Notes: a model not told the origin generated them from the letters alone. Positions 124 to 33,081 are shown, counted from the stretch's first letter. The stretch is 34,708 nucleotides of DNA from Oscillospiraceae bacterium (GCA_031551695.1 JAVBNG010000056.1:1-34708); one strand, 5' to 3'. A program made the numbers and translations.

Positions 124-145
124 CACGCTAAAGCTGGAATAACAA

Positions 146-180: not shown

Positions 181-283
181 TGCCGCACGCCAAAGCCCTG
201 CCGCCACGCGGCTGTCCGTCCTTTATTTTGTAACTTTTTTGTTGCGCAAATGTTGCATTTCGCCCTATTTATAGACGTTATTT

Positions 284-345
284 TTGTCACCGTGCTATAA
301 TTTTCTTGACAATACGAAACTTCTTTTTCTTTTATTGTTGGGTTC
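284..345 (+). promoter_or_regulatory. Putative promoter region for the hybrid kinase / GGDEF operon (extended -10 TGcTATAAT near 290-300; alternative TTGACA at 306-311)
   Basis: TATAAT preceded by TGn. A TTGACA hexamer sits 18 nt upstream of TTTTAT. There is a GC hairpin in the leader and a GCAGAGG RBS before the ATG at 392. Confidence 0.3.
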
Positions 346-391
346 CACACCCGCAAAGCGGGCGCCTCCTCATTGCAGAGGTAACAAACCC

Positions 392-1687: not shown

Positions 1688-2790
1688 AACAGCTTGCAAA
1701 CCGGGTCTGGGCAAAAAAGGCGTATCTGGCACTTGCGGCTTTCCTTGTCATGTTTGCCTTCGTCAGTTACACGTCGCTGTCGTCCATCTCCCTGCTGCAG
1801 GGCAACGCCCGGGTGGTGAACTATGTGGGCATCGTGCGCGGAGCCACGCAAAAGCTGATAAAAGAAGAGCTGATGGGCTGGCATTTGGCCCAAACCGACC
1901 CACAGGCCATCGACGCCGCGCAGTGGTATCCCGACGACGAGCTGATAGCCCGGCTGGACGGCATCATCCACGAACTGCTGACAGGCGAGGGCGAGAATGA
2001 CCTTGTGGTGCTGCAGGACGACGAGTACCTCAATAATATGCGCCAGGTGCGGACCCACTGGAAGGCACTGAAGGGCCTGATTATGGAAGTGCGCGCCGGG
2101 GCGGACCCGACCGGGATGTTCCTCTCCAGCCAGGAGTACTTCACGCTGGTGAACGAGACAGTGTTTTCCGCCGAGCGCTATTCCGAGCGCCAGGTCGCCC
2201 GCATCAACACCACATTGGTAGCCGTCAACATCATTTTTGTGCTGTTCATCGTGGCGGGCCTCGTCATGTATATGCGAAGCCTCGCCGTCAAGCGGCGGGC
2301 CGAGACCCTTGGCAAAATCGCCTATGTGGATCCCCTGACGGGCCTTGACAACCGCGCCAGCTGCGAGAGGATCGTGAAGCGGCTTATCGAAACACCGGAC
2401 GACACCGCACTTGCCGTGTTTATGTTCGACATGAACGATTTGAAACTGACCAACGATTTTCTTGGCCACAAAGGCGGCGACATCATCATTGCCGAGTTTG
2501 CCGCCGCGCTGAAAGCGGCGGGCACAAAGTATGGGTTCATCGGGCGCTTTGGCGGCGACGAGTTCCTCGGCATTTTTGAGGGGGCCGACACCAGCATTGC
2601 GGAAGCGTTTCTTGAGGAAGTGCGCCAGAGGGTGGACGAATACAACCAAGGCCAGCCGAACGCGCTGGAGCAGATCAAATACGCCGCGGGATACGTGCTG
2701 GCAAACGCGCGGGAAACAAATATCGAGGATATGATTCACGAGGCGGACAACCAGATGTACCGCGACAAGCGCCGCCTGAAAGCCATATAA
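1678..2790 (+). CDS. Diguanylate cyclase (GGDEF domain) with an N-terminal two-TM periplasmic sensor domain. Its start overlaps the upstream kinase stop (ATGA at 1684-1687).
   Basis: Motifs RFGGDEFLGIF (GGDEF), PLTGLDNR and MFDMNDLKLTNDFLGH. Two hydrophobic helices flank an approximately 170-aa extracytoplasmic segment. Confidence 0.85.
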   Translation: MLMKQLANRVWAKKAYLALAAFLVMFAFVSYTSLSSISLLQGNARVVNYVGIVRGATQKLIKEELMGWHLAQTDPQAIDAAQWYPDDELIARLDGIIHELLTGEGENDLVVLQDDEYLNNMRQVRTHWKALKGLIMEVRAGADPTGMFLSSQEYFTLVNETVFSAERYSERQVARINTTLVAVNIIFVLFIVAGLVMYMRSLAVKRRAETLGKIAYVDPLTGLDNRASCERIVKRLIETPDDTALAVFMFDMNDLKLTNDFLGHKGGDIIIAEFAAALKAAGTKYGFIGRFGGDEFLGIFEGADTSIAEAFLEEVRQRVDEYNQGQPNALEQIKYAAGYVLANARETNIEDMIHEADNQMYRDKRRLKAI

Positions 2791-2825
2791 GCGGCTTTTA
2801 CAAAAACAGTAACCGGCCTTTTATC

Positions 2826-2853
2826 AAAACCACTCGCCTGGCGAGTGGTTTTC
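2826..2853. terminator. Bidirectional terminator-like hairpin (ccactcgcc / ggcgagtgg flanked by A-run and T-run)
   Basis: Inverted repeat read directly. It lies 36 nt after the GGDEF stop. Confidence 0.5.
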
Positions 2854-2866
2854 ATTAGACAAAAAA

Positions 2867-2888
2867 CCGCCGCAGATTCCTGCGGCGG
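2867..2888. repeat. 22-bp palindromic hairpin element ccgccgcagattcctgcggcgg, copy 1
   Basis: Perfect 9-bp stem with a 4-nt loop. An identical copy lies at 3065-3086. On the minus strand it is followed by a T6 run, which is terminator-like. Confidence 0.6.
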
Positions 2889-3064
2889 CAAGGCTGTCAA
2901 AGAACGCATGAGCGCACAGGGGCCGGGGAACGCATAAGCTTATCGTCAGCCGCAAGCCGAATCGTGAACAACATTCCTTCGTTGTGCACGAAGCGGCGCG
3001 GAAGGTAGATGAGCGTTGCGTCGCCGGACACTGCGCGCGGGCTAATCTTTTTTTGACAAGCTGA

Positions 3065-21336: not shown

Positions 21337-21517
21337 AATATTCTCCGCATGTTTTTCGGTAAATCAATTATACTTGGTACGGCTCCGACAATCATTCAAC
21401 ATCATTCGCATTTTGTCAATAATTGATATTTTTTACAAGTAAATCTTTATCCTCTCCGGCGTAATTGCTATACTGTAACCACGGGAAGGCGGCGGCACAA
21501 AAAGGAGCAATGTGCGT

Positions 21518-23272
21518 ATGCATGAACAAAAGGCCAAGAAGGAAAAACAGCCGCGCATCCGCCGGCTCAGCTTCCAAATGACCCTGTATTTTTCCGTGGT
21601 CATCGTCATCACCTTCCTCACTCTGGCCCTTCTCATCAGCAATTTGTTTGCCGGGCAGCTGATGAAGGAGATGGACGACGTACTGAACAGGAAAATGGGC
21701 CTGATGGACAGCGAGCTGAAAAACCAGCTTTTGCAGGTGCAGGCCCTGCACGCCAGCCTCATCAACGACAACATCCTGCGCACCGGCATGCTGAACGTGC
21801 GCGAAAACGGCGTGGACGCCGCCGGCATGGGCATCATACAGGGCCATTTAACCAGCTTTGCCCGCCAGGCCTCTTATGTTACATCCATTGTGGCATTTGA
21901 CGCCAACCAGAATATTTTGCATTCCTACTATTCCCTGCCGCCCTATTCCAGCCTGGTGGCAAAGTCGGAGGAGTTCAAGGCGTTTCACGCCTCGGCCCGC
22001 ACGCGCAGCTTTACTAGGCCAGATTCTTTTCCCGTGGCCATGGGCTCGCAGGACAGTGGCAGCATCACCTATCTCGGCCTTTTGTATGACCCCGTAGAAG
22101 ACTACGAAACCCTCGGCACCGTGGCCATCAACCTAAAAACAAGCTTTCTGTTTTCCTCCCTTGCCCCGCTGGCAGCCGATTCTTTTGACGCCTGCTTCCT
22201 CACCGGGCCGGACGGCGCCGTTGTTTACAGCACGGCGCGGGAAGGCTTCCAAAGCCTGGGCCCGGCGGATGTAGACAGCTCCTTTCGGATGTACTGCACC
22301 CAAGTGTCCGGCTATCCGGATTGGAAGCTTACCTGCGTGCTGCGTGAATCGGCATTCCAGTCCGGCCTTGTGGACATGTACAAGGTGGTCATCGGCATGT
22401 CTTTGGTGGCGCTGTTTTTCGTCATTTTGCTCAGCTTTTACATCGCCAAAACCATCACCCGCCCCATCGACCGTATGAAGAGCGCCATGGTCATCCTTGG
22501 CGCGGGGGACTACCCGCCGGAAATCACGGCAAACTCCGGCGGCGAAATGCGGGAACTGGTTGTGGGCTTCAACACCATGGTAAGCGACATCCGCCGCCTC
22601 ACCGGGGAGATTATTGAAAAGCAGGAGAAGGAAAAGGAGTATGAGGTGGCCATGGTACAAACCCGGCTGGATCTGCTACAGCTGCAAATCAACCCCCACT
22701 TTATCCACAACACGCTGAATAGCATGAAATATATGGCACAGACCGCCCACAACGACGAACTTGTGGAAACCATCACCGCTTTCAATGCCCTTTTGCGAGC
22801 CAGCATGTCCTCTTTGCAGGAACAGGCCAGCGTGATGGAAGAGATTGTAAACACCCAGAATTACCTGCACTTGCAGCGCGGGCGGTATGGGTTTGCAATC
22901 GGATTTCACCACGAAACAGGCGATGAAGCGCAGTTTGCCCTGCTGCCAAAACTGATTTTGCAGCCCATTGTGGAAAATGCGCTGTTCCACGGCATTGCCC
23001 CGGCAGATGGCGGAAACATCTTCTGCCGTTTTGAAAAGCAGGGCAACGCGCTGGTGGTGACAGTGCGGGACGACGGCGTGGGCATCCCGGAAGAAAAGCT
23101 TGCCGACATTGCAGGTGGCAAGATGGAAAGCGGCCGCAGCTACAGCCACATCGGCCTTGCCAATGTGAACCAGCGGCTGGTGCTGCTGTACGGCGAAGGC
23201 AGCCATTTGCAAATGAACAGCAAAGAAGGGCGCGGCACCACCGTCACTTTTCAAATTCCATTCATCACCTGA
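21518..23272 (+). CDS. YesM/LytS-family sensor histidine kinase (2 TM, approximately 250-aa extracytoplasmic domain, HAMP, His_kinase PF06580, HATPase_c)
   Basis: Diagnostic LQLQINPHFIHNTLNSMKYM box. HATPase GGNIF ... DDGVGI ... The ATG at 21518 is 9 nt after AAGGAG. The GTG at 21512 is an alternative start. Confidence 0.8.
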   Translation: MHEQKAKKEKQPRIRRLSFQMTLYFSVVIVITFLTLALLISNLFAGQLMKEMDDVLNRKMGLMDSELKNQLLQVQALHASLINDNILRTGMLNVRENGVDAAGMGIIQGHLTSFARQASYVTSIVAFDANQNILHSYYSLPPYSSLVAKSEEFKAFHASARTRSFTRPDSFPVAMGSQDSGSITYLGLLYDPVEDYETLGTVAINLKTSFLFSSLAPLAADSFDACFLTGPDGAVVYSTAREGFQSLGPADVDSSFRMYCTQVSGYPDWKLTCVLRESAFQSGLVDMYKVVIGMSLVALFFVILLSFYIAKTITRPIDRMKSAMVILGAGDYPPEITANSGGEMRELVVGFNTMVSDIRRLTGEIIEKQEKEKEYEVAMVQTRLDLLQLQINPHFIHNTLNSMKYMAQTAHNDELVETITAFNALLRASMSSLQEQASVMEEIVNTQNYLHLQRGRYGFAIGFHHETGDEAQFALLPKLILQPIVENALFHGIAPADGGNIFCRFEKQGNALVVTVRDDGVGIPEEKLADIAGGKMESGRSYSHIGLANVNQRLVLLYGEGSHLQMNSKEGRGTTVTFQIPFIT

Positions 23273-23281
23273 GGGAGAACC

Positions 23282-24844
23282 ATGAAAACCATTCTATTGG
23301 TCGATGACGAATTCCCCGCACGCCAGATGGTGAAAAGCATGGTGGACTGGGGGAAAAGCGGCTTCACCGTGATGTATGAGGCAAAAAACGGCGCCGAAGC
23401 CCTGCAGCTGTATCGCCAGCACAAACCGGACCTTATCATCAGCGATATCCAGATGCCGGTGATGGACGGGCTGGAACTGCTGTCTGCCATCCGTGAAACA
23501 GACCCGCAGCAGTTGTTCATCATCCTCAGCTGCTTCGAACGGTTCGACTACGCGCGGCAGTTGGTGCGCCTTGGAGGACTCGATTACCTCATCAAAGACA
23601 CCCTCACGCCGGAAGGGCTGTACACCGCTTTGCAGCAAGCAAAGGGGAGGCTGGAACCGGCGCAAAAGGATGCCGGAACCGCCGGCAAAGCAGTTCTGGC
23701 GCAGCCCTCCGCCTGCAGCCTGGCCCTGCGGCGGTGGCTGCGTGGCGAAAATGGCGAAGAGACCGCGCGGCAGCTGAGGGAGGCGGCGGAAGAGGACGGA
23801 CGTTTTCTGCTGGCCTGCGCAAAGCTGGAGGGCGGCGGCAGGACTCAGCCGGATGCGCTGGCAGCGTGGCTGGAAGGCCTGCCGGATATTCCCGGCTGGC
23901 GCGGCCGTGCCGCGGGCCCCGGCGGGGAAATCCTGCTGTATTTGTCACTGCCAAAAAACGGGGGCGAGGATGACCCGGCCCGCAAATATGCCCTGCTGCA
24001 GGCGGTGAAAGCCGTGCTGGAAAGCGGTGACGGCAACAGGGCCACACTGGGGGTAAGCGCGGTGCACAAAACCGCCGACGAATTGCCCGCCGCGCGCGCA
24101 GAAAGCGAAGACGCCTTACGCTACCGTTTATTTTTGGGGCAGGGGAATATTTTGTATTACAACCCTTTGCAAAACGCCAGCCATGCCGTGCAGCACCGGC
24201 AGTTGGAAACGCGCATTGCCAATTTACGCGCCGCCCTTGCGGCGGACGAGATGGCCACAGTGAATGGCAATTTGGACAATTTGTACGGCGCAAACCTGCA
24301 CGGCGTCATGCACCTGAATTACCTTACCTACCTCAATTCGGTCTTGTGGGGCATGCTGGCGGAAGAGCGCATGCTGCGCGGCCAGATAGACGCGCCCGGC
24401 GGAGACGGCCCGAAAACAGCGGCGGATGTTTTACGGCTGGGCAGCGTGGAGGAAATGAAAAACACCTTCAGCGGCGCTTTCACGGCTCTTTCAAGCGCCT
24501 GCCGGCGGCAGTCCGCCCCGGAATACAGCCAGCGCGTGCGCCATATCATCCAGTACATCGGCGAGCATTTGGCCGAGGATGTCAGCCTGGACGTGCTGGC
24601 CCGCCATTTTCAAACCCACAAAACCCATCTTGCCCGCACTTTTAAGGAAGAAACCGGCTTGGGCGTGCAGGAGTTCATTCGGCAAGCGCGTATCGAAGAG
24701 GCAAAAAACCTTTTGATGAACAGCCAAATGCGGGTCAACGAGATCGTTTACCATGTGGGCTTCAAAAACGCACAGAACTTTTACACTTTATTCACCCGCT
24801 ATGTGGGCCTTACACCAAAGGCATTCCGCGATCAATATGGTTAG
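23282..24844 (+). CDS. YesN-like response regulator (REC + C-terminal AraC-type HTH)
   Basis: REC LLVDDEFPARQ ... LIISDIQMPVMDG. C-terminal AraC helix-turn-helix ... FKNAQNFYTLFTRYVGLTPKAFR. GGAGGGAG RBS. Confidence 0.85.
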   Translation: MKTILLVDDEFPARQMVKSMVDWGKSGFTVMYEAKNGAEALQLYRQHKPDLIISDIQMPVMDGLELLSAIRETDPQQLFIILSCFERFDYARQLVRLGGLDYLIKDTLTPEGLYTALQQAKGRLEPAQKDAGTAGKAVLAQPSACSLALRRWLRGENGEETARQLREAAEEDGRFLLACAKLEGGGRTQPDALAAWLEGLPDIPGWRGRAAGPGGEILLYLSLPKNGGEDDPARKYALLQAVKAVLESGDGNRATLGVSAVHKTADELPAARAESEDALRYRLFLGQGNILYYNPLQNASHAVQHRQLETRIANLRAALAADEMATVNGNLDNLYGANLHGVMHLNYLTYLNSVLWGMLAEERMLRGQIDAPGGDGPKTAADVLRLGSVEEMKNTFSGAFTALSSACRRQSAPEYSQRVRHIIQYIGEHLAEDVSLDVLARHFQTHKTHLARTFKEETGLGVQEFIRQARIEEAKNLLMNSQMRVNEIVYHVGFKNAQNFYTLFTRYVGLTPKAFRDQYG

Positions 24845-24889
24845 CGGGCCAGATAAGCAGAAACCGAAAGCACGAAAGGCGTGGTTGGG

Positions 24890-25909
24890 ATGCGGCGCGT
24901 GAAAAGATGGATGGCGCTGGCGGCGGCGTTGCTTTTGTTCTCTTTTTGTGCCTGCGGCAGGCAAAGCGTACAAAGCGCGGCCGGCGACGCGGCGGCGGCA
25001 CCGGCGGCCGGGCAGGCTGCTATGCGGGCGGCCGGCCTGCGGGCAGCCGTGGTGCTGGATGGCCCGGCGAACGGCCGCGCCTGGAACGCGGACTGCTGCG
25101 CGGGCCTTTTGCAAGCCCGCGACATTTTGGGCTACGAAATCGACATTGCCGAAAATGTTGCCCCGGCGGACTTCGAGCAGGCCTTCCGCGCCTACGCCGA
25201 GGCCGGGTACGACCTGATCATCGCGCCGGGGCTGCAATATCTGCCCGCGGTGGAAGCTCTTTACGCCGATTACCCCGGCACCCATTTTGCGGGCTTCAAT
25301 TTTCCTTTCACGGCCGGCAATGTAACGTCGCTCAACTTCAACCACCTGCAGGCAGGCTTTTTGGCCGGCGCCCTCGCCGGGCTGTGCACAAAAACGGGCT
25401 CCGTCGGCTTCATCGGCGGTGACGAGGTTTCCTCTACCATGAATGTCATGCGCGGTGCCGGCCAGGGCATTCGCCATGTGCGGGGCGATGTGCAGTTCAC
25501 GGTTTCCACCGTCGGCGCATGGAATGACCCCGCCAAGGCAAAAGGTCTGGCGCAAACACAGATAGGATCCCAGGGCGTGGACGTGATTTTGGCTTACGGG
25601 GACGGCGGCAACCGGGGTGTTGTGGAAGCTGCGGAAGGCAAGGCGGCCTGCATCGTGGTGGACGCCATTGACGCGCGCGTCACCGCCCCGGACACTGTGT
25701 GCGGCGGTGTTTTGCTAAGCAACAGCGCCATGGTATTGTTTGCGGCAGACATCGTGGCCGCAGGCCAAAGCGGGCGGGCCGTGGTTGGCGATGTAGCGAA
25801 CGGTGTGGTGCGGCTGGGTTCCTTTGGCACAGCGGTGGACGGAGCCACGGCGGAAACACTTGGGGGCATTTACGATGATATCGCGTCCGGCAACATAACG
25901 ATTACCTGA
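24890..25909 (+). CDS. Second, divergent BMP-family lipoprotein, encoded immediately after the YesM/YesN pair
   Basis: Signal MRRVKRWMALAAALLLFSFCAC. BMP-like core GRAWNADCCAGL ... YDLIIAPGLQYLPA. The GTG at 24881 is an alternative start. Confidence 0.75.
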   Translation: MRRVKRWMALAAALLLFSFCACGRQSVQSAAGDAAAAPAAGQAAMRAAGLRAAVVLDGPANGRAWNADCCAGLLQARDILGYEIDIAENVAPADFEQAFRAYAEAGYDLIIAPGLQYLPAVEALYADYPGTHFAGFNFPFTAGNVTSLNFNHLQAGFLAGALAGLCTKTGSVGFIGGDEVSSTMNVMRGAGQGIRHVRGDVQFTVSTVGAWNDPAKAKGLAQTQIGSQGVDVILAYGDGGNRGVVEAAEGKAACIVVDAIDARVTAPDTVCGGVLLSNSAMVLFAADIVAAGQSGRAVVGDVANGVVRLGSFGTAVDGATAETLGGIYDDIASGNITIT

Positions 25910-25929: not shown

Positions 25930-25968
25930 AAATAGCCCGGGCAGCTTGCCGCCCGGGCTGTTTCGTTT
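25930..25968. terminator. Bidirectional terminator between the BMP lipoprotein gene and the convergent metal-transport operon
   Basis: agcccgggc ... gcccgggct stem followed by GTTTCGTTTGG. Preceded by AAAAATA. Confidence 0.5.
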
Positions 25969-25986: not shown

Positions 25987-26139
25987 TCAATGCTTGTGCT
26001 CTTCCTTGTGCTCATGGCCGTGGTCATGGCTGTCCTTTTTTACAGGGTTGCCGTTTTCGTCCAGTTCCTCTTCCGTGCCAAACAAGTCGTCCATATCCTC
26101 AAGGTCGTCCAAAATCCCGTGATGTCCCTCGTGCATCAT
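25987..26139 (-). CDS. Small ORF (50 aa) encoding an acidic His-rich peptide MMHEGHHGILDDLEDMDDLFGTEEELDENGNPVKKDSHDHGHEHKEEHKH. Absent from the supplied ORF track.
   Basis: Translated by hand from the minus strand. A strong AAAGGAGGTG RBS lies 6 nt before the ATG-ATG. It sits 34 nt downstream of the 194-aa gene in the ATPase operon. 9 of 50 residues are His. Confidence 0.5.
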   Translation of the reverse strand: MMHEGHHGILDDLEDMDDLFGTEEELDENGNPVKKDSHDHGHEHKEEHKH

Positions 26140-26173
26140 CGCTGTCACCTCCTTTTATCGTTTGTATCCAAGC

Positions 26174-26758
26174 TCATTCCGGGTCGTACAGGTACATCCG
26201 CTTGGCTTTGTAATTGGTTTCGCAAGTCTCTATCCAATCCTCCGGGATCTCCCCCAAGGGAAAGCGCGCCACCATGCAAGGCTCAATGTAGCCGGGAAAA
26301 ATGGAGCGGTCCTCCGGCAAAACGTCGCTTTCATAGCACAAAATTTCAAGGCCGTGCTTGTAAACGCTCAGGGTTTCGGCGTCCAGGTCGATATGGTACT
26401 GCCAGCGGCAGCGCCACCCCAGCAAAAACGAGCTGTAATCCACCATGAAGGGGTAACGATCCCGGATGGGGGCAAGGGCGTCCTTCGTATATTTCAGCGC
26501 CTCCACCCAGCCGAAATCGTCCGTCCAGGTTTGTTCGGGCATATATTTTTTGTAGCCCTCGCGCTGGGCGGGCGTCATCGGGTCGTCTTGGTTTACCAAT
26601 GTAATGCCGTCGTATATTTCGCATAGTTCATTAACGGAATTTTCCCGGCAGAACGCCACCACTCGCCTGCCCATCACGCGCAGCTCCGCGTTGCGGTGCA
26701 CATAGCTCGCTTTTTGCCTGCCGTCCTTTATCAGGACGATCACACCTTTTTTTGCCAT
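26174..26758 (-). CDS. Hypothetical cytoplasmic protein (194 aa) with no recognisable family, co-operonic with the P1B ATPase
   Basis: The ATG at 26758 (MAKKGVIVLIKDG ...) lies 13 nt after the ATPase stop. The N-terminal 28 codons of the ORF-track entry overlap the ATPase gene. Confidence 0.6.
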   Translation of the reverse strand: MAKKGVIVLIKDGRQKASYVHRNAELRVMGRRVVAFCRENSVNELCEIYDGITLVNQDDPMTPAQREGYKKYMPEQTWTDDFGWVEALKYTKDALAPIRDRYPFMVDYSSFLLGWRCRWQYHIDLDAETLSVYKHGLEILCYESDVLPEDRSIFPGYIEPCMVARFPLGEIPEDWIETCETNYKAKRMYLYDPE

Positions 26759-26771
26759 GTTCCGCCCCTTT

Positions 26772-28697
26772 CTATTTTTCGCCCGCGAATTTCCAGCCCA
26801 GCAGGCGGGACGAGTTGAGCACGACGAAAATGGACGACGCATTGTGGATGATGGCGGCTAAAATCGGGTTCAAAAAACCGAGGCCCGACAGCGCGATGCC
26901 GATGACATTCACGAATACGGCAAACACCCAAATATTTTGCTGGATGATGCGGTAGGTGCGGCGGCACAGGGCAAAAATGGCGGGCAGAGCGTCGATATTG
27001 TCCGACATCAGGGTGATGGACGCCGCCTCAATGGCAACGTCCGTGCCCGCGGCCCCCATGGCGATGCCCACGTCCGCCAGCGCCAGCGCGGGCGCGTCGT
27101 TCACGCCGTCGCCCACCATGGCCACCACTTCGCCCTTCGCCTTCATTTCTTTAATGGCGTCCAGCTTTTCCTCCGGCAGCAGGTTCGCCTTGAACTCGTC
27201 AATGCCCGCCTCGGCGCAAATGGCCTTCGCCGTGTACTCGTTGTCGCCGGTCAGCATCACGATATGCTGGATGCCGATGTCCCTTAGCTTTTGCATGGAA
27301 GCAGGCACGGTTTCGCGGATGGTGTCCGCCACAGAGAGCGCCCCCAGCACCCGGCCGTCCTTCACGGCAACCAGCGCCGTGCGGCCAAAGCTCTCTTCCT
27401 GCCGCACAAAGGGCATGATTTCGTCCGCTCCCGCGGGGGCGTCCTCCAGCAGCTTTTTGTTCGAAACCTCATACACCGCGCCGTTGTCCACAGCCTTCAC
27501 GCCCCGGCCAAACAGCATTTCAAATTCGGCGTTGGGGATGTCTTTCATCCTCATCTGTTTTTGGCCTGTTAAAAACGAAACAACGGCCTTTGCAATGGGG
27601 TGGTTCGAGTTCTTCTCGCAAACAGCCAAGCTATACAAAAACTCTTCCTCCGAAGCGCCCGGGGCAACCTGCGTCGCAATCACCTCCGGCGTACCGTTTG
27701 TGATGGTGCCGGTTTTATCAAGGCACAGGGTGGTCACTTTGGCGCTTGTTTCAATGGCCACGCCGCCTTTGATGAGCACGCCGCGCTTGGCCCGGTTGCC
27801 CACGCTGGCCACCACCGCCGTGGGCGTGGCCAGCACCAGCGCGCAGGGGCACGCGATGACAAGGATGGTCATCACACGCATGATGTCCCGCGTGATGAGG
27901 AACGTGATGACGCAGATGACAAGGATGATGGGCAAAAAATACTGGGCGAACACGTCGGCGGATTTTTGGGCGTCGCCCTTGTTCTCCTGCGCGGCCTTCA
28001 CCGTGGCGATGATTTTGCCCAGCACGGTGTTGCTGCCCAGCTTTTCCGCCTCTATCTCAATCACGCCGGTCTCGTTCAACGTGCCCACAAACACCTTGTC
28101 GCCCACGGTTTTGTCCGCCGGCATGGACTCGCCCGTGATGGACGCCTCGTTGATGGCGGCCTGCCCCTTTTTGATCACGCCGTCTACCGCTATTTTTTCG
28201 CCCGCGCGCACCTGGATCATGCTGCCCACGCGCACGCTTTTCAGCGGCACTTCTTTGTACTCGCCGTCCACCAGCATACGGCAGGTGGGCGGCACCAGGC
28301 GAATGAGCTCCCGCACGGCGTTTTTGGTTTTCTCCATGGTCAAATCTTCCAAAAACTCGCCGAAGATCATCATGAACGCCACAATGGCGCCGGACAGGTA
28401 TTCCCCCACCGCCGTGGTGCCGATGAGGGCCAGCACCACCAGCATGCCCGCGGTGATTTTCTTTTTGGCGATGGTTGCCTGCACGGTGGACTTGATAACG
28501 AACACCCCGCCCAGAACAAGCGGGAGGATGGACACGGGGAACGGAATGACCCCCACCCACAAATAATCGAACAGCGCGCCCAGAACGATGAGCACCGCCA
28601 GCACGGCGGGGAAAATGAACACTTTAAAATTAAAAGACGATTTTTTCTTCGCCTTTTGGGCCGCAGCCGCTGCAGCCGGCTGTTTCACTGCTTCCAT
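26772..28697 (-). CDS. P1B-type heavy-metal translocating ATPase with no N-terminal metal-binding (HMA/CxxC) domain
   Basis: CPC motif in VIACPCALVLATPTAV. DKTGTIT phosphorylation site. GDGVNDAPAL hinge. HNASSIFVVLNS in the last TM. The ATG at 28697 has a GGGAGG RBS. The GTG at 28727 from the ORF track is probably upstream leader. Confidence 0.85.
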   Translation of the reverse strand: MEAVKQPAAAAAAQKAKKKSSFNFKVFIFPAVLAVLIVLGALFDYLWVGVIPFPVSILPLVLGGVFVIKSTVQATIAKKKITAGMLVVLALIGTTAVGEYLSGAIVAFMMIFGEFLEDLTMEKTKNAVRELIRLVPPTCRMLVDGEYKEVPLKSVRVGSMIQVRAGEKIAVDGVIKKGQAAINEASITGESMPADKTVGDKVFVGTLNETGVIEIEAEKLGSNTVLGKIIATVKAAQENKGDAQKSADVFAQYFLPIILVICVITFLITRDIMRVMTILVIACPCALVLATPTAVVASVGNRAKRGVLIKGGVAIETSAKVTTLCLDKTGTITNGTPEVIATQVAPGASEEEFLYSLAVCEKNSNHPIAKAVVSFLTGQKQMRMKDIPNAEFEMLFGRGVKAVDNGAVYEVSNKKLLEDAPAGADEIMPFVRQEESFGRTALVAVKDGRVLGALSVADTIRETVPASMQKLRDIGIQHIVMLTGDNEYTAKAICAEAGIDEFKANLLPEEKLDAIKEMKAKGEVVAMVGDGVNDAPALALADVGIAMGAAGTDVAIEAASITLMSDNIDALPAIFALCRRTYRIIQQNIWVFAVFVNVIGIALSGLGFLNPILAAIIHNASSIFVVLNSSRLLGWKFAGEK

Positions 28698-28727
28698 GGT
28701 CGCGCCTCCCTCAGTCTTGCATCCCAC

Positions 28728-28785
28728 ATCCCCCCATGGGGGTTATTCTTGTGTTCATTATATGCCCCTTGCCGCGGGTTGTCAA
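28728..28785 (-). promoter_or_regulatory. Promoter-operator module A: TTGACA (28785-28780), 17 nt, TATAAT (28762-28757), then the palindrome ATCCCCCCATGGGGGTTAT (28728-28746) in the leader of the ATPase operon
   Basis: Consensus hexamers with ideal 17-nt spacing, read on the minus strand. The C6-AT-G5 tract palindrome flanked by AT matches the CsoR/RcnR operator architecture. Confidence 0.6.
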
Positions 28786-29837
28786 GCGGGAAAACCAGCC
28801 AGTTCACGAATCACTTGCGAAAGGCACCGGTACGCCAGCAACAGCGACGCTTCGGAAATATATTCGCCCTTGCCGTGGATGCCGCCCACGCGGTTGCCCG
28901 GGTGCAGCGGAAAAAAGCCCAGCACCGGCAGGCCCGCCGCGCGGAAGTGCCGGTTGTCGCTTTGGCCGGGGGCAATGTAGGGCATGGCGCCCCACGCGTG
29001 CTCCATTGCCCGCAGCACACCCGATATGGCAGGCAATGCGCGCCGGTACAGTGCCGAAGATGGCATCCGCGCATATTCCGGCGCTTCCAGCAGTGCCGCA
29101 AGGCCGCTGTAAAAATGCCGCTGCGGAATGTGCCGCCCGCCAAAAAGCCCCGGCAGCGCCCGGATGTAACCCAGCGTGGTTTCGTCGTAAAGGCCGAGGA
29201 CGGCGGCGCGGCGGTACAGTGCCTGCTGTTTTTCCAACGAGGGCGGCGCGCCCGGCCCATCGGCCTTTTGCAGGCCCATTTCTCCGGTTTGCACAGTGAA
29301 CAGCCACTTATCCCCCATCGGCACCGGAATGCCGCCGCCTTCCCCCAGCACAAGGGCCACGCGGCGGAACACGTCCGTTTGCTCCAACAGCCACTTTGTG
29401 CCAAGCTCGCCGCCGGTTTCTTCATCGGCGGTTGCGGCAAACAGCACGGTTTTTTGCGGCGTGCGGCCGCTTTGCGCCATGGCGCACAGCACATGGGCCC
29501 AAACGGCGGCGTTGCCCTTGCAGTCCAGCGTGCCGCGGCCGTACAGCCTGCCGTTTTTGCGCACAAGCCGCGTGGAAGAAACGCCTACGGGCGTTTCATA
29601 GGCGGCGGTGTCCAGGTGGGTGTGCACCAAAATGCTTTCCTCGCTTCGCCCGGGTATTCGCGCCACCAGGCTCCCCCGGCCGGGAAGGGGCTCGTGCAGC
29701 GTGTTTTCCACGCCGCACCGCCGGAAAAAGGCATCCAAAATTTCGGCCGCCCGCGTTTCGTTATGCGCCGGGGGCGTTGTATCGGTATTGACAAGCCCGG
29801 AGAGAAGTGCAATCATAGAAGCAAGCATATCCCCCAT
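28782..29837 (-). CDS. M20-family metallopeptidase (ArgE/DapE/PepV/aminoacylase-like)
   Basis: Motifs HTHLDTA and GRGTLDCKG (compare HxDVV and GRGAxDxKG of M20), and the ATADEETGGELG metal-ligand region. The true start is downstream of promoter B (ATG at 29837, 29828 or 29816). The ORF-track TTG at 29891 lies inside the -35 hexamer. Confidence 0.75.
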   Translation of the reverse strand: MGDMLASMIALLSGLVNTDTTPPAHNETRAAEILDAFFRRCGVENTLHEPLPGRGSLVARIPGRSEESILVHTHLDTAAYETPVGVSSTRLVRKNGRLYGRGTLDCKGNAAVWAHVLCAMAQSGRTPQKTVLFAATADEETGGELGTKWLLEQTDVFRRVALVLGEGGGIPVPMGDKWLFTVQTGEMGLQKADGPGAPPSLEKQQALYRRAAVLGLYDETTLGYIRALPGLFGGRHIPQRHFYSGLAALLEAPEYARMPSSALYRRALPAISGVLRAMEHAWGAMPYIAPGQSDNRHFRAAGLPVLGFFPLHPGNRVGGIHGKGEYISEASLLLAYRCLSQVIRELAGFPA

Positions 29838-29891
29838 CCCCCCATATGGTAACTGTGTTCGCAGTATATGCCCGGCGGGGGTTTCTGTCAA
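29827..29891 (-). promoter_or_regulatory. Promoter-operator module B: TTGACA (29891-29886), 17 nt, TATACT (29868-29863), then the G/C-tract element ATAT-C5-AT-C6-ATATGG (29827-29849) upstream of the M20 gene. It also lies in the intergenic region before the divergent CsoR-like gene.
   Basis: About 65 bp shares blocks with module A (tgtcaagcggg, tatatgccc, tgtgttc, C/G tracts), read directly. Confidence 0.6.
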
Positions 29892-29934
29892 GCGGGCGGC
29901 GGCTTCGCGCCCCTTTCACGGAGGTGACACACAC

Positions 29935-30246
29935 ATGGACGACCACGGCCACGGCCATTCCCACACCCATTCGCCGGAGGATTACCAGCGGATGATCAAC
30001 CGCATGTCCCGCATCGTGGGCCACGCAAACGCCATCAAAAGCATGATGGAGGAACAGCGCGACTGCACGGAAATTCTGGTGCAAATTTCCGCCGTGCAGG
30101 CGGCGCTGAACAACCTTGGCAAGCTGATGCTGAAGGACCACATCGACCAGTGCATCGTGCACGCCATCGACGGCTCCACCGGCGAAGAGGAAAAAAAACG
30201 GGTGCTGAACAGCCTGAATGAGGCGATCGAAAAATTTATCCGTTAG
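29935..30246 (+). CDS. CsoR/RcnR-family (DUF156) metal-sensing transcriptional repressor with a His-rich N-terminal extension
   Basis: Family signature QRMINRMSRIVGHANAIKSMMEEQRDCTEILVQISAVQAALNNLGKLMLKDHIDQC. Ligand positions Cys (RDC) and His..Cys (HIDQC). N-terminus MDDHGHGHSHTHS. GGAGGTG RBS. Confidence 0.75.
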   Translation: MDDHGHGHSHTHSPEDYQRMINRMSRIVGHANAIKSMMEEQRDCTEILVQISAVQAALNNLGKLMLKDHIDQCIVHAIDGSTGEEEKKRVLNSLNEAIEKFIR

Positions 30247-30337: not shown

Positions 30338-30393
30338 TTGACAATTCCCGCGGGGTAGCTTACCATTAACGAATATATTTTTAAAAAATATAT
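30338..30393 (+). promoter_or_regulatory. Promoter of the triple-RidA gene (TTGACA 30338-30343, 17 nt, TACCAT 30361-30366) with a 21-bp perfect AT palindrome ATATATTTTTAAAAAATATAT (30373-30393) at the transcription start
   Basis: Hexamers and palindrome read directly. Direct repeat atatccga x2 at 30389-30414. AAAGGGGAG RBS. Confidence 0.5.
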
Positions 30394-30430: not shown

Positions 30431-31699
30431 ATGAGCGGCTATAATGCGGTATTGGCACGAAATACGAACGACGCACCGAACAATGCGTTGTATTCACAAA
30501 CGGTGGCTTTTTCCCACTACAACAACCTTTCGGCCCAGCTGCCCGCAGACCCCGCAACCGGCAAACTGGTGGCGGGCGGCGTGAAAGAGCAGACACAGCA
30601 GTGCTTCAAAAACATCGAGGCCGTGGTAAACAGCATCGGCCACGTGATGAGCGACGTCGTGCGCATCAGCGTGTTCGTGCGTGACATCAAGGACGTGGAC
30701 GCGGTGGACGAGGTGTACAAAACCTTCTTCCCCACCTATGTGCCCACGCGCACAACGGCCGCCGTGGCGGCCCTGCCCATGGACGCACTGGTGCAGGTGG
30801 AAGCGCTGGTCTCCAACGGCGAGGGCACCATTCCAAACGCGCCGCAGGCGGGCGATTTGATCAAGCTGGCAAACAACACGGCAAACGCGCCGGTAAGCGC
30901 CCTGTCCTCGCAGACGGTGGCGTTCTCCCATTACAACAACCTTTCGGCCCAGCTGCCCATCGACCCGAAAACCGGACGCCTGGTGCCGGGCGGCGCGGCG
31001 GCGCAGGCTGCCCAGTGCCTTGCGAACATCAAGGCCATTTTGGAAAGCATAGACGTTCCGTTGGATGATATTGTGAAAATGAACGTCTTTTTGACGAACC
31101 CGGCAAACAACAAGGCCGTGAACGAGGTGTACACCACCTTCTTCCCGGACTCCGGCATCGCCCGCGCCGCGGCCTACATGCCCGCGCGCACCACCATCGT
31201 CGCCGACGCTTTGCCCATGGGCGCTTTGGTGCAGATGGAAGCCGTGGTGTCCCACGGGGACGGCACGCCCCCGCAGGCGGTGGAGGACCGGCATGGCCTG
31301 ATTATTGAGGCAAACAACACGGACAGCGCGCCGAAAAGCCCGCTCTCCACGCAAACGGTGGCCTTCTCGCACTACAACCATCTTTCCGCCCAACTGCCGC
31401 GAGACCCGAAAACCGGCAAAACCGTGGCCGGCGGCGCAAAGGAGCAGGCGGCCCAGTGCCTTGCCAACATCAAGGCCATTGTGGAGAGCATCGGCCACGC
31501 CATGGCCGACGTGGTGAAAGTGAATATCTTCGTCAAAAACATCGCCGACATCGGCGCGGTGGACGAGGCCTACAAAACCTACTTCCCCGGTGGCGTGCCC
31601 GCGCGGAAGGTTTTGGGCGTGTCCGCCCTGCCGGACGACGCACTTGTTCAAATAGACGCCGTTGTGGCGAACGAGGAAGGGACGCCGCCCGTCGCATAA
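30431..31699 (+). CDS. Single polypeptide with three tandem RidA/YjgF/TdcF (endoribonuclease L-PSP, reactive-enamine/imine deaminase) domains
   Basis: Each domain of about 140 aa carries the RidA pattern (SQTVAFSHYNxLSAQLPxDPxTG ... AQCLANIKAI ... VVKxNxFxxN ... VDEVYxTFFP ... PAR ... ALP ... LVQxEAVV). The three copies are visible as about 420-bp DNA repeats. Confidence 0.8.
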   Translation: MSGYNAVLARNTNDAPNNALYSQTVAFSHYNNLSAQLPADPATGKLVAGGVKEQTQQCFKNIEAVVNSIGHVMSDVVRISVFVRDIKDVDAVDEVYKTFFPTYVPTRTTAAVAALPMDALVQVEALVSNGEGTIPNAPQAGDLIKLANNTANAPVSALSSQTVAFSHYNNLSAQLPIDPKTGRLVPGGAAAQAAQCLANIKAILESIDVPLDDIVKMNVFLTNPANNKAVNEVYTTFFPDSGIARAAAYMPARTTIVADALPMGALVQMEAVVSHGDGTPPQAVEDRHGLIIEANNTDSAPKSPLSTQTVAFSHYNHLSAQLPRDPKTGKTVAGGAKEQAAQCLANIKAIVESIGHAMADVVKVNIFVKNIADIGAVDEAYKTYFPGGVPARKVLGVSALPDDALVQIDAVVANEEGTPPVA

Positions 31700-31833: not shown

Positions 31834-31944
31834 TAACGGATATTACATCTGTTGTCGCCCGTTTTGCCCGGCCATGCGATTGCAGGCACTCAAGCGGCTC
31901 TTGCTTCGGCGGCAACGGGCACATCCTATCTCCGGAGGCCATCC

Positions 31945-33081
31945 ATGAAACAATGCGTCATCATACCGGACTCTTTCAAAGGCACACTTTCCTCCACCAA
32001 GGTGTGCGAAGTGATAAAAACTGCTGTCTTGCGCCACTTCCCCGGCTGCCGCGTGCTTGCCGTTCCCGTGGCGGACGGCGGCGAGGGCACGGTGGATTGC
32101 TTTTTGGCCGCGCTGCCGGGCGGCGAGCGGGTGCCTTGCACCGTGCCGGGCCCCACCGGCAGTGATATCCCCGCCTTTTACGGCCGCTTCGGCGGCACCG
32201 CCGTCATCGAAATGGCGGCGGCGGCGGGCCTGCCGCTGGTAAGCGGGCAAAAGGACCCTTCCAAAACCACCACCCGTGGCGTAGGGCGGCTCATCCGCCT
32301 GGCTGTGGAGGGCGGCGCGGAGAAAATTCTGCTGGGCCTTGGCGGCAGCTGCACAAACGATGCCGGCTGCGGCTGCGCGGCGGAGCTGGGCGTGCGCTTT
32401 TACGATGAAGGCGGCAACGTCTTTGTTCCCACCGGCGGCACCCTGAAAGATGTGCGCCGCTTCGACACCTCTGTGGCCGAAAAGCTGCTGGCAGGGGTGG
32501 AGGTCACCGCTATGTGCGACGTGACAAACCCGCTGTTTGGCGAAAGCGGCGCGGCGTATATCTTCGCCCCGCAAAAGGGCGCGGACGATGAAATGGTGCG
32601 CCGGCTGGACGCGGGCCTGCGTTCCCTCGGCGCCCTGATGGACGCCCGGCCCGGCCTGTCGGGGCTTTCCGCCATGGCGGGCGCGGGCGCGGCAGGCGGC
32701 CTTGGGGCCGGCGTATGCGCCTTTTTGGGCGGGCGGCTGCAGCCGGGCATCGACGCCGTGCTGGGCGTGGTGGACTTTGCAAGCACCCTGCGCGGATGCG
32801 ACTACGTATTCACCGGGGAGGGCCGCTTCGACAGCCAGAGCATGCACGGCAAAGTGGTGGACGGCGTGGCGAAGCGCGCAAAGGCCGCCGGCGTGCCGGT
32901 GGTCGTCATTGCGGGCGACACCTCGGGCGCGCCGCCGGAAGCGTACGCGGCGGGCGTTGCCGCGGTGTTCAGCACAAACCCGGCCCCTCGGCCCTTTGAG
33001 GAGGCCAAGCTGTACGCCCGCGAAAGCCTTGCCGCCACGGCGGACAACATTTGCCGCCTAATTAAAACCGCCGAAAAGTAA
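31945..33081 (+). CDS. glxK: Glycerate kinase (GlxK/GarK family, PF02595)
   Basis: N-terminus MKQCVIIPDSFKGTLSS ... VPVADGGEGT and C-terminal ... GKVVDGVAKRAKAAGVPVVVIAGD are typical of the glycerate kinase family. The ATG at 31945 is preceded by GGAGG. The ORF-track start at 31852 is an upstream extension. Confidence 0.8.
   Translation: MKQCVIIPDSFKGTLSSTKVCEVIKTAVLRHFPGCRVLAVPVADGGEGTVDCFLAALPGGERVPCTVPGPTGSDIPAFYGRFGGTAVIEMAAAAGLPLVSGQKDPSKTTTRGVGRLIRLAVEGGAEKILLGLGGSCTNDAGCGCAAELGVRFYDEGGNVFVPTGGTLKDVRRFDTSVAEKLLAGVEVTAMCDVTNPLFGESGAAYIFAPQKGADDEMVRRLDAGLRSLGALMDARPGLSGLSAMAGAGAAGGLGAGVCAFLGGRLQPGIDAVLGVVDFASTLRGCDYVFTGEGRFDSQSMHGKVVDGVAKRAKAAGVPVVVIAGDTSGAPPEAYAAGVAAVFSTNPAPRPFEEAKLYARESLAATADNICRLIKTAEK

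Follow-up and report, generated by a model that had tools for sequence, protein, structure and literature searches.

We identified a metal-detoxification gene cluster comprising a CsoR/RcnR-family repressor, a P1B-type ATPase lacking a metal-binding domain (MBD), a compact M20 metallohydrolase, a small peptide and a 194-aa protein (Table 1) in the window, which is the entire 34.7-kb (34,708-nt) stretch of DNA analysed. Judged from its sequence, the cluster probably constitutes a metal-inducible detoxification regulon that operates by derepression, the metal being most probably Ni(II) and/or Co(II). The first-pass annotation of this DNA had remarked that such a combination of genes is not a textbook arrangement. 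We agree, and Bacillota and Spirochaetota both conserve the combination, arranged in several gene orders.

Table 1. Features of the cluster and their positions in the window
Feature	Position	Strand	Basis
Intrinsic-terminator-like hairpin and T run, operon end	25934..25959	-	scan
Small peptide, 49 aa, MHEGHHGILDDLEDMDDLFG...	25987..26136	-	orthologue conservation
194-aa cytoplasmic protein, accessory cluster member	26174..26758	-	gene start corrected to 26758
P1B-type ATPase, 641 aa	26772..28697	-	PF00122, PF00702, TIGR01525
Operator-like box 1, ATAA-CCCCC-AT-GGGGGG-AT-GTGGG-AT (coding strand)	28721..28746	-	read directly
ATPase operon promoter, TTGACA-17-TATAAT	28757..28785	-	12/12 match (promoter scan)
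Compact M20 metallohydrolase, 348 aa	28782..29828	-	PF01546
Candidate repressor-gene promoter, TTGACA-17-AATCAT with TG	29788..29816	+	10/12 match
Operator-like box 2, TTACC-ATAT-GGGGGG-AT-GGGGG-ATAT (coding strand)	29827..29852	-	read directly
M20 promoter, TTGACA-17-TATACT	29863..29891	-	11/12 match (promoter scan)
CsoR/RcnR-family (DUF156) repressor, 103 aa, InrS-like	29935..30246	+	PF02583

Gene set and distribution

The gene set recurs in many anaerobic bacteria of the Bacillota and Spirochaetota, with the 194-aa protein present or absent, and at least five gene orders are known for the repressor, ATPase, M20 and peptide genes (with or without the 194-aa gene). In the window, as in L001, L004, L007, L008, L009 and L027, the repressor gene is divergent from M20-ATPase-194aa-peptide. 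All five genes are co-directional in Treponema primitia (L015), while the repressor is divergent from peptide-ATPase-M20 in Intestinibacter bartlettii (L016), L018 and L019; L020 has this same order, but the locus is cut off before M20. The remaining orders are ATPase-peptide-194aa-repressor-M20 (L022) and 194aa-ATPase-M20-peptide-repressor (L013). Linkage of the gene set persists with M20 proteins at just 30-35% identity. Carriers include the human-gut commensal I. bartlettii, the termite-gut spirochaete T. primitia and many uncultured anaerobes; the relatives of the source organism are Bacillota MAGs. Literature searches combining CsoR with M20 and P-type ATPase, or CsoR with Clostridia and nickel/cobalt, found no description of the cluster.

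Duplicated promoter modules

The near-consensus sigma70 promoters with 17-nt spacers that had been read upstream of M20 and the ATPase held up in a promoter scan, matching the consensus at 11 and 12 of 12 positions, respectively. Five matches of at least 11/12 occur in the whole window, against 0.115 expected from block shuffles. The M20 stop codon sits within the -35 hexamer of the ATPase promoter. The two modules were also said to share sequence blocks, and this proved correct: over 72 nt they are 73% identical, well beyond the functional hexamers, and their global alignment score is 30 compared with -11.9 +/- 4.5 (maximum 7) in shuffles. The blocks common to both are CCCGCTTGACA, GGGCATATAMT, GAACACA and the 17-mer ATGGGGGGATGKGGGAT, which occurs without mismatch on the minus strand at 28721-28737 and 29829-29845 and has no third copy in the window when three mismatches are allowed (0.19 expected).

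The design of the M20 promoter is also found upstream of M20 in L004, L007 and L009, with a relic in L005, and that of the ATPase-proximal promoter in 11 loci (L001, L004, L005, L007, L008, L009, L016, L018, L019, L020 and L027). No terminator separates the M20 and ATPase genes, and their transcription units are probably nested. At the end of the operon, the hairpin has an 11-bp stem (nine G-C pairs) and runs into ATTTTTGTGT. No known RNA element was detected in the window with Rfam at gathering thresholds, so no NiCo or other riboswitch is involved.

The candidate repressor-gene promoter lies inside the 5′ end of M20 and points towards the M20 promoter. Transcription from it would pass through box 2, by which the repressor gene may be autoregulated. 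Its analogue in L007 is a repressor-strand promoter within the M20 5′ end (TTAACA-17-TACAAT, 10/12). No equivalent was detected in the other related loci, and we therefore treat the window promoter as tentative.

Operator-like boxes

Both boxes in the window lie 10-15 nt past the -10 hexamer. According to the definitions of CsoR/RcnR operators (PMC3902906), box 1 reads as type 2, an interrupted G/C-tract palindrome, to which a second, shorter G tract is added, and box 2 reads as type 1-like, with a degenerate left arm and a long G tract. The earlier description of a G/C pseudo-palindrome in each module thus stands for module 1, where the interrupted palindrome is a true one, but not for module 2, whose box is not a G/C palindrome. 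The position of box 1 over the transcription start fits repression (PMC3902906). Box 1 was also considered as a terminator and rejected, as it is terminator-like on the plus strand only, antisense to the genes.

In related loci, orthologous boxes of the form AT(A)nCCCC(n)ATGGGGGGAT lie 6-15 nt past the -10 hexamer. Relatives of box 2, CC-ATA(A/T)-G7-AT-(G/A)GGG, are present in L007 and L005, and a G8 box is present in L030. When both strands of 23 non-redundant loci and the window were searched with a regular expression for a strong promoter that has a C-tract/G-tract box in the next 40 nt, every one of the 21 matches fell at a cluster promoter. Within about 25 related Bacillota and Spirochaetota loci, the promoter-plus-box arrangement is confined to the promoters of this gene set. 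The first-pass annotation had recommended searching other genomes for the modules; the promoter-plus-box design is conserved at corresponding genes across some 20 independent loci, which range from 40 to 59% GC.

Control of M20 is less uniform. Relative to the predicted transcription start, box 2 spans about +8 to +28; it overlaps a Shine-Dalgarno-like G tract and ends in the M20 start codon (ATG 29828-29826). Given its degenerate left arm and its overlap with the ribosome-binding region, part of its conservation could come from translation signals. In L001, L008 and L027, which share the gene order of the window, the M20 promoters are plain and box-free, so control of M20 is lineage-variable. 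It is conceivable, if rather improbable, that only the ATPase operon is repressed, in which case the G-rich sequence before M20 would be a ribosome-binding region or a decaying box, and M20 an unrelated housekeeping neighbour. The lack of a proper C-tract arm in box 2, its overlap with the G run and the ATG, the three box-free promoters and L005, where M20 is lost altogether, can all be read in this way, but good palindromic boxes are found at the M20 promoters of L004, L009, T. primitia and L028, and the extent of identity between the two window modules also speaks against it. Moreover, in all contexts examined the compact M20 gene adjoins the ATPase, peptide and repressor genes, even at 30% identity and with the gene order changed; in L016, L018, L019 and L029 it follows the ATPase gene immediately and is read in the same direction. 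The original proposal of one regulator acting on two transcription units is supported by profile searches and by the conservation of boxes at the same genes, with the refinements that the M20 box is lineage-variable and that the two units are probably nested.

The repressor

A profile search placed the divergently encoded regulator in DUF156, as had been proposed (PF02583, E = 3.7e-24; score 85.4 bits, cutoff 22.8; positions 2-76 of the 78 in the profile aligned). Its closest solved relative is InrS (5FMN, E = 9.5e-24), followed by PDB 6AHX; the bit score is 86.8 with InrS and 59.6 or less with any CsoR. The protein shows the fingerprint of InrS-type sensors as assigned in PMC7055735 and PMC4235346, namely a His-rich N-terminal extension, H12-C44-H69-C73 at the W-X-Y-Z positions and a residue other than Tyr at the A position. 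With an alignment offset of +9, the four ligands correspond to H21, C53, H78 and C82 of InrS. All six closest orthologues keep the H-C-H-C ligands and also the Asp at the A position (Asp43, in RDC); the W-position His is missing from the orthologues of T. primitia and L013, and that of T. primitia has no His-rich N-terminus.

Other subfamilies fit less well. The C-H-C triad of Cu(I)-sensing CsoR is present, but the Tyr of the Tyr35-His61-Glu81 second-shell network, described as a preserve of Cu(I) sensors (PMC4235346), is replaced by Asp. For RcnR, the Z position is Cys73 instead of His and the NF011613 model gives 55.9 bits against a cutoff of 138. A formaldehyde or persulfide sensor of the FrmR/CstR type was rejected, given the His at the Y position and a FrmR model score of 40.8 against a cutoff of 133 bits; the regulated genes, a metal pump and predicted metal-binding products, also contradict it. 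By its sequence, the repressor most closely resembles the nickel sensor InrS, and this favours Ni/Co over Cu.

The ATPase

Profile matches to PF00122 and PF00702 bore out the identification of the P1B ATPase, and no N-terminal metal-binding domain was found in the same search, in line with its description as MBD-less. It scores 561.5 bits with TIGR01525 (cutoff 346), has eight predicted transmembrane helices, and carries the DKTGT phosphorylation site, ACPCAL in M4 (CPC), FVN in M5 and H-N-A-S-S in M6. All 35 homologues sampled carry the M4, M5 and M6 motifs without change, M6 as H-N-x-S-S.

The best solved relative is the P1B-4 pump sCoaT (7QBZ, E = 6e-102), a structural relative over the whole length (residues 29-636 aligned) including helices MA and MB. 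Both pumps are without a classical metal-binding domain and conserve the invariant M6 His (PMC8880997), but this His is all that the window ATPase shares with the P1B-4 (Co/Zn/Cd/Ni/Fe) signature of sCoaT, CoaT and CtpD, SPC in M4 and HEGxT in M6 (PMC8880997): the 35 homologues have CPC and HNxSS. The release glutamate E658 of sCoaT is Asn in the window ATPase, and E120 in M2 aligns with Ser. Of the P1B-1 (Cu+/Ag+) signature CPC, YN(x)4P and MxxSS (PMC5552934), only CPC is complete, since M5 F-V-N has neither the Tyr nor the Pro and M6 reads H-N-A-S-S, and there is no N-terminal CxxC HMA domain. P1B-2 (Zn/Cd/Pb) pumps join CPC to a pair of M5 Lys and M6 Asp (PMC8880997); this pair is absent, M5 (QNIWVFAVFVNVIGIALSG) being free of Lys and M6 of Asp. 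On motif evidence, the ATPase belongs to a large, coherent CPC / H-N-x-S-S subfamily outside the signature sets checked (P1B-1, P1B-2 and P1B-4).

The peptide, the 194-aa protein and the M20 hydrolase

The small peptide, with its conserved start at the ATG at 26136, consists of an MHEG N-terminus, an acidic stretch and a His-rich tail. It had been singled out as His-rich; such a tail does exist, but it varies among 11 orthologues, and the defining feature is the N-terminal motif MHEG(H/K)HGILD..LFG, in which M1, H2, E3, G4, H6, G7, I8, D10, D16, L18, F19 and G20 are invariant. A search with this motif retrieved 10 metagenome loci, all but one with cluster genes beside the peptide; in the short locus L021, only a distant ATPase and the repressor were seen with it. 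The peptide always occurs together with the CPC / H-N-x-S-S pump. The L028 peptide is membrane-anchored and adjoins the pump. Like HypA, where this motif uses the N-terminal amine and His2 to coordinate Ni(II) (PMC7055735), the peptide starts with Met-His-Glu; only the motif is in common, the peptide having neither the HypA fold nor its zinc domain, and we claim no homology.

Neither the peptide nor the 194-aa protein belongs to a Pfam or NCBIfam family. The latter has no counterpart among solved structures and matches phrog_30528, an uncharacterised phage/mobile-element family, weakly (E = 4.5e-4); its remote relatives from profile searches match the same family at 1e-10 to 1e-21, and Foldseek retrieved uncharacterised viral proteins (E about 1e-7).

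Membership of the hydrolase in the M20 family, also part of the first reading, was confirmed with PF01546 (81 bits, E = 1.3e-22). The full set of dinuclear-site ligands and the catalytic Glu are present; among 30 homologues, H71, D73, D102, E137, E163 and H318 do not vary, and conservation of E136 is 90% or higher. Profile searches detected the dimerisation (lid) domain PF07687 neither in the window protein nor in any full-length homologue; its place is taken in the AlphaFold2 model (pLDDT 92.6) by a helical insert at residues 198-275. Foldseek matched the model to the catalytic domains of DapE, carnosinase and CPG2 (M20A).

Inducing metal

The metal is not readable from sequence, and Cu(I) or Zn/Cd would suit the C-H-C triad and the CPC motif just as well. 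Even InrS is a tight binder of Cu(I) and Zn(II), each of which releases it from DNA in vitro, and which metal it responds to in the cell depends on the sensors that accompany it (PMC4235346, PMC7055735); sensor sequence does not fix metal specificity (PMC7055735). No Ni or Co enzymes or importers are encoded within the window. We favour Ni/Co because the sensor is InrS-like with Asp in place of the CsoR Tyr, because the ATPase keeps the P1B-4 M6 His, is closest to sCoaT (PMC8880997) and lacks the Cu(I) signature YN / MxxSS (PMC5552934), and because the peptide begins with M-H-E, the motif with which HypA binds Ni (PMC7055735). The membrane-anchored peptide beside the pump in L028 is a further hint.

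A copper system, in which a Cu(I)-sensing CsoR would control a CopA-like exporter that has lost its MBD and the peptide would replace CopZ, seems unlikely. C44-H69-C73 is the CsoR Cu(I) site (PMC7055735) and the T. primitia regulator does without a His-rich N-terminus, but the Tyr-His-Glu network has Asp for Tyr, as in non-copper members (PMC4235346), and InrS is by far the better match. Box 1 is of the type described for CsoR (PMC3902906). The CPC in M4, an M6 ending in SS as in P1B-1 pumps and a score of 421 bits with the Cu-ATPase model TIGR01511 (cutoff 397) would suit copper, but none of the 35 family members has YN(x)4P or the MxxSS Met (PMC5552934), profile searches found no CopZ or HMA domain, and the peptide offers His, acidic residues and the MHE N-terminus, not a Cys/Met site.

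Efflux of Zn/Cd, or of divalent metals broadly, by recruitment of a CsoR-family protein as a Zn/Cd sensor is more improbable still. Zn/Cd pumps likewise have CPC in M4, the Cd-type model TIGR01512 scores 458 bits, above the Cu model, and sCoaT was characterised with Zn and Cd (PMC8880997), but the P1B-2 Lys/Asp pair is absent (PMC8880997). His- and Asp/Glu-rich peptides and M20 enzymes typically bind zinc, and InrS binds it tightly in vitro (PMC4235346); nevertheless, Ni is the better match for the MHE N-terminus and for the square-planar-type H-C-H-C set. A csoR-cueA divergon of Bradyrhizobium is described as contributing to Cu, Zn and Cd tolerance (PMC5057107), while the reviews PMC11672702 and PMC7055735 name no natural Zn-sensing member of the CsoR family.

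Proposed mechanism and comparison with known systems

For a Ni/Co-responsive regulon, we infer the following course. A metal-free InrS-like tetramer would bind the boxes at about +5 to +30 of the two sigma-A promoters and block transcription of the compact M20 gene and of the operon for the ATPase, the 194-aa protein and the peptide. Metal, most probably Ni(II) and/or Co(II), bound at the H-C-H-C site would lower the DNA affinity of the repressor, and both promoters would fire. The MBD-less ATPase (CPC, H-N-x-S-S) would export the metal from the cytoplasm, and the peptide would bind it through the MHEG(H/K)H N-terminus, aided by variable His or Cys tails, either to buffer the metal or to serve the pump in trans as a metal-binding partner.

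InrS-nrsD of Synechocystis PCC 6803 has the same repressor family, a His-rich N-terminus and identical H-C-H-C spacing, and its operator overlaps the efflux-gene promoter, with release by metal (PMC3320959), as predicted here. InrS, however, controls the MFS-type exporter NrsD, not a P-type ATPase; a peptidase, a small peptide or a 194-aa protein is not reported with InrS in the literature found, and the carriers of our cluster are anaerobic Bacillota and Spirochaetota. CsoR-copZA of M. tuberculosis, B. subtilis and S. lividans likewise combines a DUF156 repressor with a type 2, AT-flanked G/C pseudopalindrome, and its P1B ATPase operon also encodes a small metal-binding partner (PMC3902906), a role that is putative for our peptide. 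The window system differs in its repressor without the A-position Tyr, its ATPase without HMA and YN / MxxSS, its short MHEG peptide instead of a ferredoxin-fold CopZ, and the M20 gene in the unit. RcnR-rcnA of E. coli (Ni/Co) is a family member controlling divalent-metal efflux, as we propose here, and the RcnR type 1 site TACT-G6-N-AGTA, a single AT-flanked long G tract, resembles box 2 (PMC3902906); the RcnR fingerprint is H-C-H-H, whereas Z is Cys in the window, and RcnA is not an ATPase.

Operons for metal efflux under repressor control are familiar, but the parts combined here are not. A bolder reading, possible but on balance doubtful, is that the MHEG peptide is a new dedicated partner handing Ni/Co to an MBD-less pump, whether as a soluble chaperone, in membrane-anchored form in some genomes or as a trans-acting regulatory domain, and that M20 and the 194-aa protein are functional components of the same module, a widespread one among gut and sediment anaerobes. 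No chaperones are known for the sCoaT branch of pumps, according to the sCoaT study (PMC8880997). If true, the peptide would fill this acknowledged gap as a chaperone of a non-copper P1B pump, and true co-induction of M20 would connect metal stress with one particular hydrolytic reaction. Ready probes, in the form of the predicted operators, and cultivable carriers exist, which makes these hypotheses directly testable.

Gene Content of the Cluster

Positions 25987–30246 of the window contain five genes (see the table), three of which the first-pass annotation had assigned to families as a DUF156 regulator, an M20 peptidase, and a P1B ATPase. Profile searches bore out these assignments, with matches to PF02583, PF01546, and PF00122/PF00702, respectively, and returned zero matches in Pfam and NCBIfam for the 194-aa protein and the small peptide. 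The existing record of the identical M20 protein likewise places its start at 29828. Just 3′ of the regulator gene lies a gene for a protein with three tandem RidA/L-PSP domains, with a promoter-like site nearby. Among the related loci compared with the cluster (L001–L030), the flanks of L001 are partly syntenic with the window (1–2977 and 21512–25909, respectively), a YesM/YesN-type two-component pair and a BMP/PnrA lipoprotein being present in both, and glycerate kinase flanks the cluster in L007 too (window 31852–33081, L007 6993–8150). On this evidence, the cluster sits on the chromosome and has been passed down vertically within this group; it is not on an obvious mobile element.

Features of the metal cluster and its immediate surroundings in the window
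Feature	Position	Strand	Details
Small peptide	25987–26136	−	49 aa counted from conserved ATG
Unknown protein	26174–26758	−	194 aa
P-type ATPase	26772–28697	−	641 aa; PF00122 + PF00702; TIGR01525, 561 bits (cutoff 346)
M20 hydrolase	28782–29828	−	348 aa; PF01546, E = 1.3e-22 (profile search)
Regulator	29935–30246	+	103 aa; PF02583, E = 3.7e-24 (profile search)
Terminator-like hairpin	25934–25959		strong; closes minus-strand unit
ATPase promoter	28785..28757	−	TTGACA-17-TATAAT, 12/12
M20 promoter	29891..29863	−	TTGACA-17-TATACT, 11/12
Box 1, at ATPase promoter	28721–28746		ATAA-CCCCC-AT-GGGGGG-AT-GTGGG-AT (coding strand)
Box 2, at M20 promoter	29827–29852		TTACC-ATAT-GGGGGG-AT-GGGGG-ATAT (coding strand)
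Promoter-like site facing M20 promoter	29788–29816	+	10/12 with TG
Promoter-like site near RidA/L-PSP gene	30338–30366		TTGACA-17-TACCAT
RidA/L-PSP triple-domain protein	30431–31699	+	422 aa; PF01042

Two Promoter–Operator Modules

The two promoter–operator modules noticed at first pass, one upstream of the ATPase gene and one upstream of the M20 gene, proved to be real rather than chance resemblances. The promoter scan found five matches of at least 11/12 in the entire window, against 0.115 expected. The 17-mer ATGGGGGGATGKGGGAT occurs in exactly two copies, one per module, with no others at up to three mismatches (expected 0.19), and the modules are 73% identical over 72 nt, with an alignment score of 30 compared with −11.9 ± 4.5 (maximum 7) for shuffles. 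Equivalent module pairs within related loci are only 56–61% identical, which makes duplication or gene conversion in the window's lineage plausible, with shared functional constraint accounting for part of the similarity. Three further near-consensus sigma-70 promoters (11–12 of 12) lie at 10313 (+), 9737 (−), and 6518 (−), the first preceding an ABC exporter gene and the last a FIST-domain gene; no G/C-tract box was found at any of the three.

A G/C palindrome had been proposed in each module, and this description held for box 1 only. Box 1 is a true interrupted G/C-tract palindrome with AT flanks, the form described as a "type 2" CsoR-family site (PMC3902906), whereas the left arm of box 2 is degenerate and its G tract long, which brings it nearer to RcnR "type 1" sites. 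Box 2 also reaches the M20 start codon, and its second G tract therefore probably serves that gene as a ribosome-binding site too.

One transcription unit is probably nested in the other. The ATPase promoter overlaps the end of the M20 gene, whose TGA stop codon sits within the −35 hexamer, and a scan of the window detected no terminator between the two genes. Transcripts from the M20 promoter probably read on through the ATPase operon, for which box 1 would then be a second checkpoint. On the opposite strand, a promoter-like site within the 5′ end of the M20 gene points through box 2 to the regulator gene, and L007 has an analogous site on the regulator strand. This arrangement suggests face-to-face promoters that share one operator, with the repressor autoregulated, a reading that we keep tentative because no equivalent site was detected in loci other than the window and L007.

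Confinement of the Boxes to Cluster Promoters

We collected further loci through a species-genome collection, ATPase homologues, the peptide motif in metagenomes, and distant M20 homologues, which gave a comparison set of about 25 non-redundant loci from Bacillota and Spirochaetota, including Intestinibacter bartlettii and Treponema primitia. GC content ranged from 40 to 59% in the window and its five closest loci. We scanned both strands of 23 non-redundant loci and the window with a regular expression that required a strong promoter and, no more than 40 nt beyond it, a C-tract/G-tract box; there were 21 matches, all of them (21/21) at promoters of cluster genes. The ATPase-proximal box is kept in related loci as AT(A)nCCCC-N2-4-GGGG(GG)AT, 6–15 nt past the −10 hexamer, and would therefore cover the predicted transcription start, as expected of a repressor operator. 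The M20-proximal box differs between lineages: it is a good palindrome in L004, L009, T. primitia, and L028, takes the long-G-tract form in the window, L007, and L030, and is absent from L001, L008, and L027. L005, the closest relative of the window's cluster, has lost the M20 gene. Some 170 bp before its ATPase promoter, however, L005 retains a strong promoter with a G7 box (ATATCCATATGGGGGGGATAGGG; L005 5806–5880), apparently a relic of an M20 deletion that would have left two tandem promoter–operator units. Within the loci scanned, the promoter–box design was thus found only beside this gene set, and this strong comparative evidence supports the initial proposal of a regulon in which a CsoR/RcnR-family repressor would gate a P1B efflux operon.

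Predicted Metal Specificity of the Pump and the Regulator

The ATPase aligned best to the P1B-4 pump sCoaT (7QBZ, E = 6e-102; residues 29–636), and a profile search found no N-terminal metal-binding domain. Its ion-site motifs, CPC in M4, x-x-x-N in M5, and H-N-x-(S/A)-S in M6, were invariant in 35/35 sampled homologues with 59–100% identity; in L030 (2245–4470), the 741-aa ATPase is extended at its N-terminus by about 100 residues, and its M6 variant is H-N-C-A-S. With the P1B-1 signature (CPC / YN(x)4P / MxxSS plus an HMA domain; PMC5552934) the window ATPase shares only CPC, and with that of P1B-4 (SPC / HEGxT) only the M6 His, while it lacks both the M5 Lys and the M6 Asp of the P1B-2 pair (PMC8880997). 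By these motifs, the ATPase is assigned to a distinct P1B subfamily. Retention of the P1B-4 M6 His together with loss of the Cu(I) residues favours a divalent borderline metal as the predicted substrate.

The best solved relative of the regulator was the Synechocystis nickel sensor InrS (5FMN, E = 9.5e-24, 86.8 bits), compared with 59.6 bits for Geobacillus CsoR and 40.2 bits for Mycobacterium tuberculosis CsoR, and its scores against the RcnR, RicR, and FrmR equivalog models fell far under their cutoffs. In the alignment with InrS, an offset of +9 puts its H12, C44, H69, and C73 on H21, C53, H78, and C82 of InrS, the W-X-Y-Z ligand positions, of which His21 is backed as a ligand by XAS (PMC7055735; PMC4235346). 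These four residues and a His-rich N-terminus are kept in the six closest orthologues; the T. primitia and L013 regulators lack the His at the W position. In its sequence, the regulator is InrS-like.

Nickel and/or cobalt is the most likely metal to be sensed and exported, at about an even chance in our estimate. Copper is a live rival, as is zinc or cadmium: InrS binds both Cu(I) and Zn(II) tightly, both release it from DNA in vitro, and reviews caution that sequence does not fix the metal specificity of sensors in this family (PMC4235346; PMC7055735). The loss of Cu(I) residues from the pump weighs against copper, and the regulator has Asp where copper-sensing CsoR proteins carry a second-shell Tyr before the first Cys.

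Other Proteins of the Cluster

Full-length homologues of the M20 enzyme form about 35 clusters of 313–423 aa; all lack the PF07687 dimerisation domain, and ordinary M20 proteins align to the N-terminal half only. In place of this lid domain, an AlphaFold2 model (pLDDT 92.6) puts an all-helical insert at residues 198–275. Across 30 sequences, the dinuclear-site ligands H71, D102, E137, E163, and H318 are invariant, as are D73, C103, K104, R293, and R296; conservation of the catalytic E136 reaches at least 90%. This pattern and the superposition of the model on the DapE, carnosinase, CPG2, and ArgE catalytic domains indicate that the protein is probably an active metallohydrolase. C103, which follows the bridging Asp (GRGxLDCKG) in 30/30 compact members, aligns with an Asp in CPG2 and could shift the metal preference. 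Linkage to the pump persists down to 30% identity and through different gene orders. In the distant loci L028 (6230–11152) and L029 (6115–11122), the compact M20 gene is followed by one for a ~250-aa protein (weakly matching PIG-L/LmbE in Pfam in L029, with a similar copy in L028) and then by an Opp/Dpp/Nik-type ABC importer (SBP_bac_5, two permeases, ATPases), which hints that the enzyme may act on an imported peptide-like or thiol-conjugate compound. As candidate roles, the enzyme may cleave a peptide or acyl conjugate to free an amino acid that chelates metal, or may be a metal-tolerant replacement isozyme.

Close homologues of the 194-aa protein number only six among 5.8 billion proteins, all in the same cluster. 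Homologues with 44–48% identity are also encoded apart from this ATPase: no copy of it lies near the gene in L010 or L012, and the only ATPase in L011, 3 kb downstream, is 33% identical. A profile search retrieved 611 remote relatives without Pfam domains; those scanned match phrog_30528 (phage proteins), and the wider family, to which P0040 belongs, includes a 620-aa protein with a PcfJ-like domain as fusion partner. Foldseek with the confidently predicted structure (pLDDT 84.7, pTM 0.84) returned uncharacterised phage and giant-virus proteins, the latter ORFans of similar predicted fold. A mobile-element protein family seems to have been recruited into the metal cluster, as an accessory component given its absence from I. 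bartlettii-type clusters.

In 11 orthologues, the small peptide keeps an invariant N-terminal 20-mer, MHEG(H/K)HGILD(D/G)x(E/D)DMDxLFG, with an acidic run after it. Its tail is His-rich in the window and I. bartlettii, carries Cys-x-Cys (C-N-C) and no His runs in L013 and L029, and is absent in L014, T. primitia, and L030; the L030 peptide has just 32 aa. In L028 (Dethiobacter sp. MAG, 4633–4830), a CxxC/His-rich middle precedes a C-terminal hydrophobic helix (TLGIIALSIVLVFLFRLIF), which would anchor the peptide by its tail in the membrane beside the pump. Of ten metagenome loci found with the peptide motif, all but one have cluster genes adjoining the peptide; the exception is L021, a short locus that shows just the repressor and an ATPase at a distance. 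An N-terminal Met-His-Glu is the Ni(II)-binding motif of HypA (PMC7055735), and, according to the sCoaT study, this branch of pumps has no known chaperones (PMC8880997). We prefer to regard the peptide as a metal buffer or a trans-acting partner of the pump.

Our literature search found no description of this gene set. Control of a P1B efflux operon by a CsoR/RcnR-family repressor is known in kind; what is new is a conserved module made up of the pump with its ATPase signature, the MHE-peptide, an M20 enzyme without a lid domain, and the unknown 194-aa protein.
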